Below are positions 2,214-14,195 of a stretch of DNA of 14,480 nt, piece after piece (the stretch's first letter is position 1; each line of letters opens with the position of its first letter). The translations under genes and the position numbers were made by a program. This DNA is from a virus (Duplodnaviria > Heunggongvirae > Uroviricota > Caudoviricetes). The stretch lies in IMG/VR virus record IMGVR_UViG_2778261572_000004, one strand, 5' to 3'. The notes beneath the pieces were generated by a model that searched no databases, was not told the origin of the DNA, and saw only the letters and a program-made list of their open reading frames with translations.

Positions 2214-2554
2214 CAGTGAGTGACCTCTTCAAAGGTACAGTTAAAATCGGTATACATGGCATTATCCGAAATACTCCACTCCCTGCAGACAACCCGGACG
2301 GTCCTGTTGTATTTTGGCGGACGCCACAAAAAAGCACGCATCCCGGCATGACGGGATAAAAAACTGTCCAGCGCGGCACGGGAATATTCATCTGTGACAC
2401 GAAATACCGGTTTAAACGTTTTCAGATCCGCATTCAGACCACCAGCCCGTCGCTGTTCATATCCGTCACCAAACTTTACCGTAATAACTGATGGCTTTCG
2501 TGTCGTCTCCATCCCCTCACGGGGGATCCAGTTAAAAACTTCAGGCTCAGGCAC
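2213..2554 (-). CDS. M: Minor tail protein M (gpM family)
   Basis: Conserved F.W...GM....PSV..V.FGDGY.QR N-terminal signature of gpM-like proteins. The ORF-track start at 2599 is a TTG. I favour the GTG at 2554-2552, which has a GGAGGA Shine-Dalgarno 7 nt upstream; the in-frame ATG at 2569 is the alternative. Overlaps the 3' end of the tape measure gene. Confidence 0.75.
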   Translation of the reverse strand: MPEPEVFNWIPREGMETTRKPSVITVKFGDGYEQRRAGGLNADLKTFKPVFRVTDEYSRAALDSFLSRHAGMRAFLWRPPKYNRTVRVVCREWSISDNAMYTDFNCTFEEVTH

Positions 2555-5500
2555 TGTACAATCCTCCATCCCGACGCGATGACTGCATAATTGACACAAC
2601 CCTGCTGTCGATCAGATCCACCAGTCCCCTGGCTGAGCGCGCATCTATCTCGCCATTGCTCCCTTGATTCTGAATGCTGATGTGATACACGGGAGAATAA
2701 ACAAATCCACCGCCACCATTCACATTTCCAATGGCCCTGACCCCAAGAGAGCCGTCCGCTGCCCGTGTCAGTGGCATGATTGCTTCAGGCCCGGCCTCGC
2801 CCATCAACCCGGCACCTTTCGCAAAAGCAAAATACGTCGGTGTATCCACAATAGTGTTACTGTAAGCACTCAGATTTGCCGATGTGTAAACACCACCTTT
2901 TGCGTTTGCCACTGCCCCCGAAATCCATCCGCCGACCGTACCAAGCCACCCTCCGGCACCGGAGAGTGATTTCAGTCCGTTAACAATGGCTGCATTCATC
3001 AGAATTTTTGAAACTTCCCGGAGAACTGAACTCCCCCAGTTCCTCCAGTCCACAACATTCCCGGCCAGTGCATCGGAAATATTTGATACCAGCCCGTCCA
3101 TCGTGGAAACGACAGCATCTGCCGCCTGTGAAGCATAATCGGTGGCACTGTCTGCCCAGTTGGTCAGTCCCTCCTGGAGTCCGGCATTCCAGTTATTACG
3201 TAAAGCATCGGCCTTTGCATAATAATTCTGCTGATCGCTGAGACGCTCTTCCAGATATTTTTTATTCAGTTCTTTCTCCTGTTTCCACAGGGCTTCTTCA
3301 ATTTCTCCGGCCTGATACTGTCTCAGCAGCTCGTTATTTTTCTGCTCAAACGTCTGCCGGATACTCCACATTTCCTGGAGTCGTTCACGCATCCGTGAGC
3401 CTTCACCATATCCCAGCAACTGCGCTTCGTCAGATGCCCGGGCACTGGCATTACTGTCCGCCAGACTGCTCTCATACGCAGCAAGCTGCTCACGAATCTT
3501 TTTCTGGTCGATGAGTGCTGCATTCTGCAAAAGCGTTTTTTTCTGCGCTTCTGACAGGGTTGATAATTCGCCCTGACTGACCTGATATTTCATCTTAGCC
3601 AGTTCAGTATTCTGCCCTGCCAGTGCTATCTGTTCTTTTTGCTGTTTAATCAGCCGTTTATAAATATCCTCTGTTTTTTCCGCTTCGGTTTTTTTATGCG
3701 GTTTATTTGCCTGGTTATTTCGCCAGGCATCCAGTGAGTTATTGATATAATTCTGTCTGGCTGTCTGATACGCCTCTCCCACAAAGCCGAGATCATCCGC
3801 AGCATAGCCCAGTCGGGCACGCTCACGCGCTTCCCCCTTCAGGCGGGACAGAGCCAGTTCGCGCTTGCTGTTATTCAGTGCGGTCTGCTGTTTATCATCC
3901 AGGGTTGCCTGTGGTAGCCGTAACGGTACATTCACCAGCCCCTGTCGCTGCTGAAGTAATTCATTACCAAGCCCGAGAAGGCGATTAAACTCGGTATGCT
4001 GCCCATTCATGATCAACAGGGACTGATACGCTTTGTTTTGTTCCGCTGCCTGTTGACGGATCAACGCCACCCGTCGCTCCTCCAGCCTGGCAAGCACATC
4101 CTGAATGGATTGCGCTTTGCCCTGCATTTGAGTGAGACGGGATTGTTCAACTGCCAGTTGATTTGTTGCTTCGGCAAGCCCTTTAAGGATGATTTCAGCA
4201 CCCGAACCACTCTGCGAACTTTCATCAAGCCAACGTTGATAATCAGCAATTTGATTTTTCAGTCCGCGAATTTTTCCTTCCTGTTCGCTAATCAGGCGAT
4301 TTTGTTCCTCCAGTGCCTGCCGCGTCTTTTCCTCATTATCTGACGCTTCAGGAAGCGACATTGCCGACGTTTTCTGGCGAATTTCGTCGATTGTTGCGGC
4401 ATACTGGCGTGCAGATTCTCTGGCCTGCTCCTGATTCTGATACATCGTGTACCAGGCCGCAGCCCCCAGCATGACGAGTCCCGGCACACCACCAACCAGC
4501 CCCAGTGCGCCACTTAATAAACGACTCCCCACTGACGTAACATTATTCAGCGTTGTCTGTGCCGCTGTTCTGGCCGCAATATTACGGGTAAGTGACGCCT
4601 GGGCAGCTGTCAGCTTCGCTTCTGCTGCGGCCTGCCTTTCGGTACCGCGAGCAGCAACAACCGCCTGTTGCGCACGATAAACCGCCGCACGCGCCCTGGC
4701 GGTTGCTATCTGTGTCCCCCGAAGTTGCGCTTCAGCAAGAGCCACTTCGTTTCTGGCTGCAGTAATTAATCCGGCAGTTGCAGATCCAGCAGACGACGCC
4801 ATATTGCCAAAATATCGGGCTACCCCGACGGCAACCAGAGCACCGACAGCGGTTGCCACGGTGTCAATGTTGCCTGCAACACCATTCAGCACCCCGGAGA
4901 GCGCCTTCGTCACTCCGCTTGCCTCGTTCGCACCACCAACCCAGGCCATAAAGGCGTTTTCAACTTTGATTGCAGAGGATGAAACCGTATCAGGCATTGC
5001 TGCATATTCATCACGCAACGCCCCAAGCTGGCTAATCAACGCAGGAACAACCTTATCGGCGGTCAGCTTTCCGTCATCCGCCATGGCCTTCAGATCCTTA
5101 CGGGCAACGCCCATTCCCGCAGCCAGCGCACGAATAACACGATCACCGCTCTCATTCACGGCGTTAAACTCTTCACCACGCAGCACTCCCTGTGCCAGTG
5201 CCTGGCTGAACTGCGTGATCACCGAACTGGCTTCTGCTGCACTGGCGCCGGATAATTTCAGCCCCGTGAAGATCGCCTCGGTGACTTTCAGTACCACCTC
5301 AGAACTGTAACCATACTCTCGCATGGAAGCTGCAGAGCGGGCAAAAAGGCTGGCGTTATCAGAAAAAGCCGTCCCCGTTCTCTGGCTGATTGCCATTAAT
5401 TCACGTTGTGATGCCTGAAAATCATCACTGGACTGCGTGGCCTGCTTCAGACGGGCATTTACTGAACTCCATTCATCCGCAAGAGATATTAGATGTCCAG

Positions 5501-5747
5501 TGGCAAAAGCACCGGCAAATGCCCCCGCCATATTCAGTGCCGAAGACTTCGCCGTATTTATCTGATCCGTCACTTCTGCCAGTGCACGCCGCATTTCACG
5601 GGATGCAGCAGCAGACTGTCGGCCTCCGTTCTGCATGGTGCGGTAGTAATCCTGCCCCATACGCGAAGCCCGGGCGATCTCTGACTGGAATGACCGGGAG
5701 TTTGCCGAGATTTTAATAATCAGTTCACGTAATGTCGCCACACTCAT
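2547..5747 (-). CDS. Tail tape measure protein (about 1066 aa)
   Basis: Very long alanine/glutamine-rich protein with coiled-coil character, a GEEFNAVNE-type N-terminal TMP motif and a glycine-rich hydrophobic C-terminus, in the canonical position between G-T and M. The ORF-track start at 5867 lies inside the upstream gene (different frame) and upstream of a hairpin; the start is placed at the ATG at 5747 (MSVATLRELIIK...), which follows a GGAGA motif. Confidence 0.85.
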   Translation of the reverse strand: MSVATLRELIIKISANSRSFQSEIARASRMGQDYYRTMQNGGRQSAAASREMRRALAEVTDQINTAKSSALNMAGAFAGAFATGHLISLADEWSSVNARLKQATQSSDDFQASQRELMAISQRTGTAFSDNASLFARSAASMREYGYSSEVVLKVTEAIFTGLKLSGASAAEASSVITQFSQALAQGVLRGEEFNAVNESGDRVIRALAAGMGVARKDLKAMADDGKLTADKVVPALISQLGALRDEYAAMPDTVSSSAIKVENAFMAWVGGANEASGVTKALSGVLNGVAGNIDTVATAVGALVAVGVARYFGNMASSAGSATAGLITAARNEVALAEAQLRGTQIATARARAAVYRAQQAVVAARGTERQAAAEAKLTAAQASLTRNIAARTAAQTTLNNVTSVGSRLLSGALGLVGGVPGLVMLGAAAWYTMYQNQEQARESARQYAATIDEIRQKTSAMSLPEASDNEEKTRQALEEQNRLISEQEGKIRGLKNQIADYQRWLDESSQSGSGAEIILKGLAEATNQLAVEQSRLTQMQGKAQSIQDVLARLEERRVALIRQQAAEQNKAYQSLLIMNGQHTEFNRLLGLGNELLQQRQGLVNVPLRLPQATLDDKQQTALNNSKRELALSRLKGEARERARLGYAADDLGFVGEAYQTARQNYINNSLDAWRNNQANKPHKKTEAEKTEDIYKRLIKQQKEQIALAGQNTELAKMKYQVSQGELSTLSEAQKKTLLQNAALIDQKKIREQLAAYESSLADSNASARASDEAQLLGYGEGSRMRERLQEMWSIRQTFEQKNNELLRQYQAGEIEEALWKQEKELNKKYLEERLSDQQNYYAKADALRNNWNAGLQEGLTNWADSATDYASQAADAVVSTMDGLVSNISDALAGNVVDWRNWGSSVLREVSKILMNAAIVNGLKSLSGAGGWLGTVGGWISGAVANAKGGVYTSANLSAYSNTIVDTPTYFAFAKGAGLMGEAGPEAIMPLTRAADGSLGVRAIGNVNGGGGFVYSPVYHISIQNQGSNGEIDARSARGLVDLIDSRVVSIMQSSRRDGGLYSA

Positions 5748-5757
5748 TCTCCGGACG

Positions 5758-5783
5758 AAAAAAAAACCGCCGAAGCGGTTTTT
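5758..5783 (-). terminator. Putative rho-independent terminator downstream of the inserted gene
   Basis: In mRNA sense: AAAAA-CCGC-UUCG-GCGG followed by 9 U. A short GC stem closed by a UUCG tetraloop with flanking A and U runs, immediately 3' of the stop at 5793-5791 and 5' of the tape measure start. Also reads as a weaker hairpin plus T5 on the plus strand. Confidence 0.55.
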
Positions 5784-5790
5784 GTATTCT

Positions 5791-6132
5791 TTAAAGAAGT
5801 CCGGCCTTACGCCTTGCTTCCTGAAGATATTCATCATCCGTTTTTTGTGAAACGGAACTATCTGCATTGCAAATTAAATCACTACCACAATGCTTACATT
5901 TAATAGCCTCTTCTTTGATCAACTCCGCACAGTAAGGGCATTTCTTCATGCCATTGCTTACCATTTGTTGTTCATGTGCCTTCTCATCTCTTTGGATTAC
6001 TAGCGAATGAACCAGAGCAACAATAAAGATCATCGCACCATATACCCACCATCCTAAAAATGAGCGACCTTTGCTTTTCGCAATAATAGCTGGAATTAGT
6101 CCCAAAACTATTGAAATAAGTAAAAATTCCAT
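5791..6132 (-). CDS. Moron-like insert: small inner-membrane protein with two predicted TM helices and a C-terminal CxxC-x(n)-CxxC zinc ribbon; candidate superinfection-exclusion or defence protein
   Basis: 113 aa from the ATG at 6132 (the ORF-track M at 6135 is a TTG): [51 protein letters not shown]...[23 protein letters not shown]... AAGGA Shine-Dalgarno 7 nt upstream. Visibly AT-richer than all flanking genes. Sits between G-T and the tape measure gene, which are normally adjacent. Confidence 0.7.
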
Positions 6133-6149
6133 CAATGTTTCCTTACTTT

Positions 6150-6182
6150 CTCAATAAAATGGGAATAATAATCCAGTCAAGT
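6150..6182 (-). promoter_or_regulatory. Possible sigma70-type promoter for the inserted gene
   Basis: On the minus strand, TTGACT (5/6 match to the -35 consensus) lies in the 55-nt gap after the G-T stop, followed 15-18 nt later by weak -10 candidates (TTTATT / TTATTG), then the SD and ATG. The -10 element is poor, so this is tentative. Confidence 0.25.
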
Positions 6183-6189
6183 GAAAAGA

Positions 6190-6878
6190 TCATCGAGCTG
6201 CAACAAATAATGCCTTCTCAATCTCAGCAAATGGATCTGAGGTGCCTTCTGTCTGCTCCTTCTCCCACTGAAGAAGCGCATCATTCAGTGGCACTTTGAC
6301 CCCCTGCGCACCGTAAACAGCTGAAACAATCTGGGCAGCCCGGATATCAGCCCGTTCGTCCCCCAGCGGGCTGAACCTGTCAAATTCTGCCCACATCATG
6401 ATTTCTGATGCGGACATTTCCCGGCGTAACTCTGACAATGTGCGCCCCATCCTGAGCGCCAGCATCATCAGAAAACGCATCCCCGGAAGCGCTACTTTTT
6501 TTTAACCTCTCCGGCATCACTGATCAGTTCCAGAGACTGGCGAAGAAGCCGGGCATGCACCGGACCATACACGGCAATCACCTGTTCACGATCACCCTCT
6601 GAAAATACGGGTTGCAGCCCGGTATCACATAGAACATCAATGAACAGTTCAACGTCCGCCTCCAGATTTCGGCGGGCACGCTCTGCAACAGATGGCGATG
6701 TATCATCTTCCCTGGCTTTAACGATCTCCTGCCAGCGCAACCAGGCTTCTGCAGAAGGTTCCCGTAACACAACCGTTGCCCCTTCCCATTCAGGCACATC
6801 AACGGTTTTATGGCGAAACCCCGACATCGTTGCCAGTGCCAGATTACGGATATTTTTAGTCATCACACCCATCCTCAT
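6190..6878 (-). CDS. Tail assembly chaperone G-T fusion, produced by programmed -1 ribosomal frameshift near 6495-6504
   Basis: The G frame ends ...GEVKKK-stop (TAG at 6494-6492). The last codons lie in the run GTT AAA AAA AAG. The -1 frame is open from 6501 and continues through VALPG into the 96-aa ORF at 6190..6480 (MRFLMMLALRMGR...). Same gene position and logic as the lambda G/GT frameshift. Confidence 0.8.
6492..6878 (-). CDS. Tail assembly chaperone (gpG-like), unshifted product
   Basis: 128-aa acidic protein directly downstream of the major tail gene and upstream of the tape measure gene, ending in a slippery A-run. The ATG at 6878 overlaps the major tail stop (TAATG); an in-frame ATG at 6863 (MTKNIRNL...) with a GAGG 9 nt upstream is an alternative start. 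Confidence 0.8.
   Translation of the reverse strand: MRMGVMTKNIRNLALATMSGFRHKTVDVPEWEGATVVLREPSAEAWLRWQEIVKAREDDTSPSVAERARRNLEADVELFIDVLCDTGLQPVFSEGDREQVIAVYGPVHARLLRQSLELISDAGEVKKK
6495..6504 (-). other. Slippery heptamer A AAA AAG (8-A run) for the G-T -1 frameshift
   Basis: Plus-strand T8 at 6496-6503; in mRNA sense GTT AAA AAA AAG TAG. Shifting -1 at A AAA AAG enters the downstream ORF frame (codon tops congruent to 0 mod 3). Confidence 0.8.
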
Positions 6879-7582
6879 TAACTGACGGTTACAGTGCAGG
6901 AAGTGGAGGTCACCTTGTTAACCGGGCTTGCAGAATCAGAAATCTCGCAGGTATACGCACCCGCATCACCGGATACTGCTGATGCCTTGCTGAACGTTGC
7001 CGCTGTCTGTCCGGAAACAGGAGAACCACCTTTTTTCCAGGCATAAGAATAAGGCGGCACACCACCCGCAGCCTCAACCACCATTTCGAGTTTCGCTCCG
7101 GCAGAAACCTGCAGCGTGCTGTTTAAATCGACCTTCACTTTCAGCGGCTCTGTCGTCAGCACAGGTTTACCTTTCAGACGCAGGGAAAACGTTGCAGCCA
7201 CAACACCATTGGTTCCTGCAGACCAGGTATGCTGACGCACCTCTGCCATAAAGGTAAATCCGTTGCCTGACGGAAAAATAACTTTAAAGCCATACGTGGT
7301 GTCATTGTCATAGGCACTGCGCAACGCGTTCTGGGCAGCGTTGAGATAAAAGTTTCCTGACATGGAAATCTCTGAAGCAGCCCCAAGACCGTTAATATTT
7401 TCCTGCTCAACAGAACACAGCGTAGTGACATCAATATCCTGCTTTTGTCCAGCGGTAAACTGCACTTCTTTGATTGTACAGCTCAGCCCAAGAAAGCTGG
7501 CAGAATCCAGGGTTTCTGCTGTTACCGGTGCAGACGAAATCATAATTTTCGTCAGTTGCGAACGCTCAAAATTAGAGGACAT
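6878..7582 (-). CDS. Major tail protein with C-terminal Ig-like (Big_2-type) domain
   Basis: 234 aa from the ATG at 7582 (MSSNFERSQLTKIM...), which has an AGGAG Shine-Dalgarno 6 nt upstream. The C-terminal ~80 aa (VKVDLNSTLQVSAGAKLEMVVEAAGGVPPYSYAWKK...YTCEISD...) looks like a bacterial Ig-like domain, as on lambda gpV. The in-frame ATG at 7633 is an alternative but would place the hairpin and U-tract inside the coding sequence. Confidence 0.8.
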   Translation of the reverse strand: MSSNFERSQLTKIMISSAPVTAETLDSASFLGLSCTIKEVQFTAGQKQDIDVTTLCSVEQENINGLGAASEISMSGNFYLNAAQNALRSAYDNDTTYGFKVIFPSGNGFTFMAEVRQHTWSAGTNGVVAATFSLRLKGKPVLTTEPLKVKVDLNSTLQVSAGAKLEMVVEAAGGVPPYSYAWKKGGSPVSGQTAATFSKASAVSGDAGAYTCEISDSASPVNKVTSTSCTVTVS

Positions 7583-7594
7583 ACTCGTCTCCTG

Positions 7595-7620
7595 AAAATA
7601 AAAAACCCGCCAGCGGCGGG
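7595..7620 (-). terminator. Putative intrinsic terminator / attenuator between the neck genes and the major tail gene
   Basis: In mRNA sense: CCCGCC-GCU-GGCGGG (6-bp GC stem) followed by UUUUUUAUUUU. Lies in the intergenic gap just upstream of the major tail gene's SD. Confidence 0.5.
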
Positions 7621-7641
7621 TAGGTAAAATCATTAACGACC

Positions 7642-12437: not shown

Positions 12438-14195
12438 TTAAAGCGAGCGGATACCAACGCTGACCAGATGCTCAGACAGATCCGGCTCCGGTTCACCGCC
12501 ATTGACCAGCATCCGGCTCATTGCTGTAAACATCGCAACAGGACCGTCGATTTTGGCTTCCGGCGTGGATTTGTTCGGGAAGATATTGTCGTTTTTGTCC
12601 GGTTTTACCGTAACGTTAGACATCATCCAGTTCATGACCGGGTGATTGCTGTGGTGAAAACGCCCGGCATAGACCAGTGATTCCGTTTCCTTCATGGCCT
12701 CTGACAGATTGCGGACCGTCTGCGGAACTTCCACCAGCGGTATACCTTCTTCAGCCAGCGCCAGACTGAACTGCATTGCGCTCCACGGGTCAAATCCCAG
12801 TTCCCTCAGGTTTTCACCGCCAATCCATTCCAGCAGGTCACTTTTTATCTGAGTATGATCGATAACATCACCATCCGTCAGGATGAGTTTATCCATCTCC
12901 GCCCATTTCCGGTAAAGTTCTGCCTGCTGCCGTGAGCATCGTTCCAGCCGTCCTTCCGGAAGCCAGAATTTAAAATCGGCATGAACATGCCCGTTATCCG
13001 TTCGCCAGAGTTTTGCCGCCGCACAGATATCAATCTTATGAGCAAGGTCGACGCCGACCCACATGGGATAGGTTTTCAGCTCATGCTGTGGAGCAATGTA
13101 TTCGCACTTCTCCCACTTAATCATATCCATCCAGGCAGATTCGGCAGTGACCCACACATTCATGTGTTTGGTAAAAAAATTCACCCGCGCAGAGACCTGT
13201 TCTTTCGCTTTTTTCGCCAGACGACGCAGATCATCCCAGCGTTTACAGATGCCCAGGCCCGGATTCGCTTTCTGCCAGACCGTTTCATCAAACGGATCAT
13301 CTCCCTCATCGAGCGTGTAAATGATCGCAAAGTAGGAGTCGTCTTTTACTGCGCCCTCCACGTTGCTGTTATAGCCACGCAATACCTTGATGGCGTAATC
13401 GCGTTGCTCGTAACAAATCCCTTCCTTGTTAAAGCCCGCCGTGGTGATACCAAATAACAGGGACTGCAGACGGGCACCGGTTGCCGTTTCCAGAACGTCC
13501 CACACGTCGCGGGTTTTATGTGCATGCAGCTCATCAATAATGGCACAGTGGATGTTCAGACCGTCCAGGTTGTTTGCATCCGAGGAAAGCGGTTCAAATT
13601 TTGATGCGCTCTGCTCCTGGTAAATCGCCAGCTTGTTGAAATCAAACAATCGCCCGAGTGTCGACCGGGCTTTTCTGACCATATTTTTGGCGTCTTCAAA
13701 CACAATTCTGGCCTGGTCACGCGTGGTTGCGGCTGAATACACCTCAGCACCGCCTTCACCATCTGCCCCCGTCATATACAGGCCGATACCCGATGACAGG
13801 GTTGATTTTGCGTTTTTACGGGCGACTTCGTTGTACGCCGTACGGAACCGGCGCACCATCACCGGACGTCCGCTGCCATCGCTGCGCATGACAACTTCCC
13901 CGGTCTCTTCATTGACCAGCGGAATGACAAAACCAAAAATATTAATGAGGATAAATACATGCCAGTCCATCAGTTCAATGGGCTGGCCTGCCAGCGCCCC
14001 TTTTACATGGGGCACAAATTTGTAGAAATTCAGGATGTGCTGCGCACGGGGTTCACTGAAATAAATCCCCCGCTCTTCGCCGTACTTCAGATCATCAAGA
14101 AAACGCTGGCAGGCCAGACGGACAAATTCGCCAGCGACAATTTCTCCTGCAACAACACGTTCGGCGTAGCGGATCCCGTCAGCCACTTTTGCCAT
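12438..14195 (-). CDS. Terminase large subunit
   Basis: 585-aa ORF immediately downstream of the small-subunit gene (ATGA overlap at 14195), with size and position typical of phage TerL (ATPase N-terminal region, nuclease-like C-terminal region). Confidence 0.9.

Follow-up and report, generated by a model that had tools for sequence, protein, structure and literature searches.

A membrane-anchored zinc-ribbon moron in the HK97 gp15 slot of an Escherichia coli prophage, a candidate superinfection-exclusion factor

The DNA analysed here is the 14,480-nucleotide stretch of virus record IMGVR_UViG_2778261572_000004 (the window), which is the minus-strand late region of an HK97-like siphophage prophage of Escherichia coli, and its subject is a small gene (5791..6132, minus strand, stop codon included; ATG at 6132, TAA at 5791-5793) lying between the tail assembly gene T and the tape measure gene, co-oriented with them inside the late tail operon. 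By comparison with related prophages this gene is a moron-type insertion in the slot that gene 15 occupies in phage HK97, and domain matches and structural modelling identify its product of 113 amino acids (aa) as a membrane-anchored zinc-ribbon protein with a predicted two-helix hairpin. The best explanation of these data, which we advance tentatively, is that the product is an Imm- or gp15-like superinfection-exclusion factor of the lysogen that would block tape-measure-dependent DNA entry. Two leads point to such a DNA-entry function, namely a hairpin remotely resembling that of Imm from phage T4 and a C-terminal peptide found also on unrelated proteins of the same slot, gp15 homologues among them.

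In the mechanism that we propose, a weak sigma-70-type promoter of the gene's own, which overlaps the T stop codon, would drive its expression in the lysogen, and the transcript would end at a conserved hairpin ahead of the tape measure gene; in lytic growth, read-through of the late operon would include the gene. Its product would insert in the inner membrane with the zinc ribbon and C-terminal peptide facing the cytoplasm, and may interfere with the DNA-entry channel that an incoming siphophage builds from its tape measure protein. It is well established that the morons in the tail operons of prophages supply exclusion and defence genes, few of which have been characterised, and this slot is the one to which the word 'moron' was first applied (HK97 gene 15), with phages, lysogens and assays in existence. 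If DNA entry is indeed blocked, the protein would represent a third architecture directed against tape-measure-mediated entry, beside T4 Imm and HK97 gp15, and would offer a handle on the role of a membrane-tethered zinc ribbon in that process. The presence of a moron in the HK97 gp15 slot was already known, and the gene is annotated without function in RefSeq and PHROGs; new here are the finding of at least five alternative contents of the slot, the remote Imm-like hairpin and the slot-associated C-terminal peptide, none of which was found in the searchable literature.

A moron gene in the HK97 gp15 slot

An initial annotation of this DNA had described a 113-aa gene between G-T and the tape measure gene, which it took to be normally adjacent to each other. 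The gene was borne out by translation and by the flanking PF06223 and tape measure frames, and the adjacency by a survey in which a 601-bp probe across the junction was compared with 5,426 complete E. coli genomes. The junction was matched in 902 genomes and carried the insert in 44 of them, and 55/60 evenly sampled junction records spanned 197-199 bp, which is the empty state with T adjoining the tape measure gene. The empty site was also present in 11 deposited phages. Whole-window matches at 97-99% identity covered 97% of the window in two pieces, a pattern that fits the absence of just this segment, with prophages 97-99% identical over 14 kb differing by the absence of just this 3%. The junction comparison that had been suggested as a check thus returned a presence/absence polymorphism. 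Universal presence and a match to a structural tail protein, which the initial annotation had named as evidence that would count against a moron, were both looked for; most sampled junctions were empty and no tail family of Pfam or PHROGs was matched, and a structural or essential tail gene was rejected on these two grounds.

Alignment with the empty site of phage vB_EcoS-640R1 delimited the inserted or replaced segment to 446 bp (5781..6226), which takes the place of some 45 bp, the final 12 T codons among them. The insert brings its own last 12 T codons (...EIEKALFVAAR, 6190-6226, minus strand), unlike those of empty-site relatives, and cassette exchange would therefore recombine inside T and not in the intergenic space. 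The AT-rich compositional break noted initially was confirmed, with a GC content of 0.373 for the segment (computed over 5783-6227) against 0.532 for the rest of the window, where the lowest value among 657 other 445-bp windows was 0.458. An Rfam scan of the whole window gave no match, so no RNA element was found in the insert. The AAGGA Shine-Dalgarno sequence that had been pointed out stands at 6140-6144 (minus strand), 7 nt before the ATG, and is kept as AAGGA or AGGGA in a second E. coli allele and in Cronobacter.

E. coli TUM1881 has the identical gene in its annotation, and a further 43 complete genomes are filled as well; the E. coli copies comprise two alleles, at about 99% and about 81% nucleotide identity. 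On codon comparison the moron gene is under strong purifying selection, the ratio of nonsynonymous to synonymous divergence (dN/dS) being 0.078 between the two E. coli alleles (dS 0.90, dN 0.07) and about 0.1 in comparisons with Cronobacter and Salmonella. A decayed, frameshifted copy was observed in E. coli JNEC-KY180 (L003:1591-1925), where it forms two open reading frames (ORFs) and has lost the first CxxC, which shows that decay, and not just clean replacement, can remove the gene.

That the gene holds the same position as the HK97 gp15 moron, as first proposed, was established by homology of the flanking features and not by position alone. In HK97, T is followed by gp15 ('moron product') and then by a putative terminator, after which comes the tape measure gene; both the tape measure N-terminus (HK97 MATLRELIIKISANS, window ...ATLRELIIKISANS) and the hairpin preceding it are homologous between the two. 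HK97 gp15 is an inner-membrane exclusion protein, as shown experimentally, and its effect on an incoming phage depends on that phage's tail region (PMC3594210). The window protein resembles gp15 in its slot, in being a small protein predicted to lie in the inner membrane, in being encoded on AT-rich extra DNA and in occurring in only some relatives, whereas gp15 is a 62-aa protein with a single transmembrane helix and without a zinc ribbon, and an exclusion function is proven for gp15 alone (PMC3594210). Membership of the YebO/gp15 family (PF13974, phrog_5031) was considered for the body of the window protein and rejected, as the match was confined to C-terminal residues (95-112 against positions 58-75 of 75, E 1.3e-3); HK97 gp15 itself matched positions 1-61 of phrog_5031 (E 5e-29). 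The view that the protein is unrelated to gp15 accordingly held for the protein body.

Across the junctions compared, the slot was empty or contained the zinc-ribbon protein, a lipoprotein (phrog_2320), a YebO-like protein (phrog_5031) or a soluble phrog_19323 protein, and it is thus a cargo hot spot with at least five alternative contents, a description that is new here. The lipoprotein was seen in E. coli F719 (NZ_OY754392.1, L025:1292-1633), where the cargo is a different 113-aa protein with a lipoprotein-type signal (MRKSVVTLACLFFISAC...) and the adjacent tape measure gene is annotated as truncated.

An intrinsic-terminator-like hairpin with a U-run (5758..5783, minus strand) lies directly upstream of the ribosome-binding site of the tape measure gene, with a 9-bp stem and a UUCG loop at 5762-5783 (-15.9 kcal/mol) and the U-run extending to 5758. 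The hairpin and U-run were kept, with compensatory stem changes, at 9/9 junctions compared, which comprised four with the zinc-ribbon gene, one empty, one with the lipoprotein gene, HK97 gp15 and two Klebsiella phages with other cargo, and which represent six states of the slot, five cargo types and the empty one; the HK97 equivalent is annotated as a putative terminator. Because it is present at all slot states, the empty one included, the hairpin belongs to the backbone of the slot and not to the insert. The hairpin and U-tract of the initial annotation are therefore real, but they are not specific to the insert. A terminator that persists in a late operon without the moron may provide insulation or a landing pad for cassette exchange.

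The predicted hairpin, the zinc ribbon and a possible remote relation to T4 Imm

The product matched PHROG 8436 over its full length (residues 1-111 against profile positions 1-108 of 110, E 2e-50), a family whose function is listed as unknown, and the identical protein sequence is labelled 'zinc ribbon domain-containing protein' in RefSeq (e.g. WP_021543566.1). Transmembrane and homology searches, which had been proposed as checks, gave this match and two transmembrane-grade hydrophobic segments by Kyte-Doolittle hydropathy. AlphaFold2, run on an alignment of 77 family sequences, returned a mean predicted local distance difference test score (pLDDT) of 76 and placed helices at residues 2-20, 25-46 and 50-59, a beta ribbon at 62-86, a disordered linker at 87-97 and a helix at 99-109. 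The first two helices (5995..6129, minus strand; pLDDT 82-90) coincide with the hydrophobic segments and are joined by a near-invariant loop, KSKGRS; the invariant or near-invariant residues among the 77 sequences are P14, A18, K21, G22, R23, S24, W28, W29 and G32. The zinc ribbon (residues 62-86; 5875..5949, minus strand) is of the Cys4 type with the motif CPYC-x10-CKHC, in which C65, C68, C79 and C82 are invariant in the same 77 sequences, and it matched PF13248 (E 1.1e-8; 34.7 bits against a gathering cut-off of 27), as did all 77 family members. The two N-terminal hydrophobic helices and C-terminal zinc ribbon first described were thus recovered. Searches for structural relatives of the whole protein in the Protein Data Bank gave just weak bL32-type ribbons by profile (E>0.1) and just small zinc ribbons by Foldseek (E>0.2).

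Class II holins are of similar size, with two hydrophobic helices and a charged tail. This likeness, and one distant relative that adjoins the endolysin in Marinomonas phage P12026, led us to consider a lysis-timing protein of the class II holin or antiholin-like kind, with two transmembrane helices and a charged C-terminus. We regard this as extremely unlikely, given that no holin family was matched at E<=1, that the gene sits in a tail module far from any lysis cassette and is missing from most sampled related prophages, and that zinc ribbons are not a holin feature.

A possible link to T4 Imm was provided by Pseudomonas phage YMC11/02/R656, in which the gene of a 195-aa protein (gp065) separates the tail chaperone genes (PF08748, PF08809) from the tape measure gene. 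This protein combines a PF14373 Imm_superinfect domain (E 1.6e-18) with a zinc ribbon and a different tail, and the Imm_superinfect plus zinc-ribbon architecture is common. R656 gp065 is 33% identical to the window protein (BLASTP E 5e-15; the alignment opens a 10-residue gap in the loop of the hairpin) and matches phrog_8436 (E 1.7e-18). The two share a hairpin, a linker, a CPYCAE...C..CG ribbon, a variable tail and the same chaperone/tape-measure position, whereas gp065 differs in its bona fide PF14373 hairpin with a longer loop, its other C-terminal domain, its lack of KTDEEYLEEAR and its TMP_2-type tape measure; its label, 'immunity to superinfection', is an annotation by homology only.

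T4 Imm itself matches PF14373 (E 7e-16). When the family hairpin was aligned with Imm-type hairpins by hhalign, with the zinc ribbons removed, a probability of 72% was obtained (E 3.5e-5, score 26.7), compared with scores of 10.4 +/- 2.5 (maximum 19.5) for 150 column shuffles and 10.5 for the reversed template. The invariant residues K21 and W28 of this family align with R33 and W50 of T4 Imm, mutation of which weakens exclusion according to a 2026 preprint; there Imm, a protein that blocks DNA entry, is also shown to bind the tape measure protein of T4 (bioRxiv 10.64898/2026.03.06.709160). The window protein shares with T4 Imm a small inner-membrane helical hairpin, here predicted, and the motifs [LI]P-x-x-IA...basic...GW; T4 Imm differs in having no zinc ribbon, in coming from a lytic myovirus and in being encoded away from the tape measure gene. 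These alignments make a remote relation of the hairpin to that of T4 Imm plausible, as distinct from membership of the same family.

A C-terminal peptide carried by unrelated slot occupants

The window protein ends in a peptide (residues 97-113, with the predicted helix at 99-109; 5794..5844, minus strand) that was recognised from weak matches to phrog_5031 and phrog_19323, both confined to residues 95-113, and from its recurrence in proteins of the same slot. The peptide, with the pattern KTD(D/E)EYL(E/Q)EAR(R/K)KAGL(L/I), occurs on three unrelated families, phrog_8436, the YebO/gp15-like phrog_5031 and the soluble phrog_19323, in each case with a TMP_3-type tape measure gene next downstream (other carriers at L119:2144-2554 and L120:1483-1713). 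A Klebsiella gp15 homologue (77 aa, YebO-like, phrog_5031 E 2e-37), upstream of a TMP_3/HK97-type tape measure gene, ends ...EKDYLDEARKKAGLI, and the same position in Klebsiella phage 2 LV-2017 holds an unannotated 137-aa protein that has the peptide, matches phrog_19323 (E 8e-87) and contains no hydrophobic segment.

Between the window and Klebsiella phage 2 LV-2017, 11/17 codons of the peptide differ synonymously and 2 residues change, and no DNA-level match to other cargo genes was found. A recombination scar as the source of the shared peptide was rejected on these grounds, and the conservation of the amino acids despite the synonymous differences means that selection acts on the peptide. 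The core KTDEEYLEEARxK was found in 46/385 collected proteins, of which 45 were family members of 110-137 aa and one was a 74-aa fragment. Every gene with this core whose context was checked (6/6) occupied the T/tape-measure slot of an HK97-type module, and relatives in other slots or beside TMP_2-type genes lacked the peptide. In all, eight cases were seen in which the peptide accompanies a TMP_3-type tape measure protein. A 45-aa double-motif query of a large protein database returned only YebO-family proteins, although this search generated few candidates.

The peptide most likely acts in the cytoplasm, because one of its carriers is a soluble protein without a signal sequence. A cytoplasmic peptide would place the zinc ribbon and C-terminus of the window protein in the cytoplasm as well, which also suits a Cys4 site. 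A ClpX degron of the 'RRKKAI-like' kind was considered for the ...ARRKAGLL end and was not adopted, because the extreme C-terminus varies (AGLL, AGLS, VWKQ, AGINE) and the conserved part, KTDEEYLEEAR, lies upstream of it.

A further and rather improbable proposal is that the TMP_3 chaperone/tape-measure slot is a modular cargo site in which the peptide (K-T-D-E-E-Y-L-E-E-A-R-x-K...) is a portable docking signal on at least three unrelated bodies and recruits each of these to a shared partner in the cytoplasm, which would be the tape measure protein with the entry machinery or else a host factor. If this were true, the slot would amount to a 'warhead plus address tag' system of exchangeable parts with which phages compete with one another. 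The shared peptide is in any case a concrete, mutable element that could reveal a common partner of unrelated slot occupants.

The distribution of the peptide also bears on whether the protein instead serves the phage's own tail or injection apparatus, being expressed late, docking through the peptide to the TMP_3 tape measure protein or its chaperones, and either being loaded into the tail and delivered or modulating assembly. Such a role would be in keeping with a co-oriented gene embedded in the late tail operon, with a peptide found on three unrelated bodies directly upstream of TMP_3-type genes and absent from relatives by TMP_2-type genes or in other slots, and with the soluble, cytoplasmic nature of one carrier. 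The gene is, however, not needed for virion production, judging from the 55/60 sampled junctions that are empty and from isolate-deposited phages without it; AT-richness and a 5' promoter-like site are typical of prophage-expressed morons; and HK97 gp15 works without the peptide. We therefore consider an accessory tail function distinctly unlikely.

Evidence against exclusion, the wider family and neighbouring features

Several results weigh against a superinfection-exclusion function. The shared C-terminal peptide is missing from HK97 gp15, although no other protein of the slot has been characterised. The positive-inside rule leaves the topology of the window protein ambiguous, with 2.2 lysine plus arginine (K+R) in the loop and 2.9 K+R with 3.9 aspartate plus glutamate (D+E) in the C-terminal flank. 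The link to Imm consists of one profile-profile comparison that needs a 10-residue gap, and the window protein gave no match to PF14373 at E<=1, nor was PF14373 among the 25 families most often matched (E<=1) by its 77 relatives; direct membership of this Pfam family was rejected for want of a match to its hidden Markov model. NCBIfam gave no match beyond sub-threshold zinc-ribbon ones, and a literature search found no experimental datum for any member of the PHROG 8436 family. A promoter scan also found nothing above threshold upstream of the moron gene in the window, and PADLOC-DB 2.0 gave no significant match, its best hits (HEase and LmuB, E 1.2e-3 and 6.7e-3) covering the zinc-ribbon segment only.

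The upstream promoter-like element of the initial annotation stood in part. A site with 8/12 consensus positions, ATGATC-17-TATTAT (-35 at 6193-6188, -10 at 6170-6165, minus strand), was recognised by eye, overlapping the T stop codon, but it is weak and falls below the scan threshold; an alternative -35, TTGACT at 6180-6175, has a poor -10 to go with it. In the Cronobacter and Salmonella cassettes the site that aligns with ATGATC-17-TATTAT is GTGACA-17-TAGGAT, which has 9/12 positions and passes the scan. The negative scan of the window carries little weight, because the scan gave no match upstream of HK97 gp15 either, a gene known to be expressed from the prophage (PMC3594210).

The PADLOC result was likewise relevant to anti-phage defence in general. 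No known defence system could be assigned from it, and we think it very unlikely that the protein is an abortive-infection or defence effector in which the zinc ribbon senses an infection cue and the two-helix hairpin permeabilises the membrane. A small prophage-borne membrane protein with faint HEase and LmuB similarity (E 1e-3 to 7e-3) in its zinc ribbon might be read in this way; these matches are, however, below a meaningful level, and 113 aa with no partner gene in the cassette leave little room for both a sensor and an effector.

The family was censused by a word-index search, which gave 1,623 clusters at 90% identity, and by an exhaustive search of 1.84 billion representatives, which gave 228 clusters at E<=1e-30 and, at the looser cut-off of E<=1e-10, 3,772 clusters, the lengths running from 94 to 471 aa. 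The conserved part corresponds to residues 1-86, and the C-terminal tails vary. A further point against exclusion is that this core is 50-57% identical in Acidobacteria, Chloroflexi, Nitrospira, Planctomycetes and others, where the neighbourhoods checked were non-phage. One would not expect such conservation across phyla if the protein had to recognise the tape measure proteins of particular phages, and the core function may be generic; the pattern fits a generic membrane role that phages later co-opted. By its distribution, PHROG 8436 is a large bacterial protein family, members of which temperate siphophages have taken into their tail modules on repeated occasions. In a Parvibaculum metagenome-assembled genome (L035:4968-6152), the hairpin and zinc ribbon form the N-terminus of a 394-aa protein whose gene adjoins a helix-turn-helix regulator and a ShlB-type transporter, an example outside phages of the module anchoring larger proteins in the membrane.

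Members of PHROG 8436 occupy the T/tape-measure position in Cronobacter, Salmonella phage FSL SP-016, Hafnia and one metagenomic relative; the Edwardsiella member lies between L and K, and the Atlantibacter member between K and I/J. Two Klebsiella phages carry distant zinc-ribbon membrane relatives (phrog_8032) directly upstream of TMP_2-type tape measure genes. In these two prophage-derived phages (L117:3483-3914 and L118:3483-4039) the relative was observed to have a third, C-terminal hydrophobic segment and no C-terminal peptide, and in one of the two a second small zinc-ribbon ORF comes next.

These data allow a reading in which the protein is a lysogenic-conversion or host-physiology factor with a generic membrane function, such as regulation of a membrane machine or of stress, which benefits the lysogen without excluding phages. 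The core identity across distant phyla in ordinary chromosomal neighbourhoods, the many clusters with variable C-terminal extensions and the lack of a defence-family match all agree with it. It accounts less well for the repeated occurrence of the gene in tail modules beside the tape measure gene, in lineages independent of one another (HK97-type modules of E. coli, Cronobacter, Salmonella and Hafnia, TMP_2-type modules of Klebsiella phages, and Pseudomonas phage R656) and for a slot-specific C-terminal peptide held in common with gp15 homologues. The gp15/YebO family has likewise been proposed to be a bacterial membrane protein family that was captured by phage and turned to exclusion, and gp15 itself is an exclusion protein (PMC3594210). 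We consider a host-physiology role unlikely on this balance, and superinfection exclusion through blocked DNA entry is kept, as tentatively as before, as the best explanation.

Upstream of the slot, the window encodes in order the large terminase (12438-14195), portal, protease, major capsid protein and head-tail connectors, followed by the major tail protein (6878-7633, minus strand), which has a C-terminal immunoglobulin-like domain (PF13895/PF13927, residues about 171-250), and tail chaperone G (6492-6878, minus strand; PF06222), which precedes T. Downstream, the tape measure gene (2547..5747, minus strand) belongs to the 1,060-aa class and is followed by M, L, K and I homologues; its start is ATG 5747, or GTG 5741 according to the annotation of relatives. 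An extension of the tape measure ORF to 5867, overlapping the moron gene, was dismissed as an ORF-calling artefact, because the annotated start of relatives corresponds to 5741 of the window and the N-terminus matches that of HK97. The T frame (6190..6480, minus strand; PF06223 E 1.6e-20), expressed as G-T through a -1 frameshift, has its 3' end within the insert. The end of G (6492-6506, minus strand) reads GTT AAA AAA AAG TAG, with a slippery run A AAA AAA G at 6495-6503, at which the -1 frame reads ...VALPGMRFLMML into T, and the G-T frameshift fusion is therefore intact.

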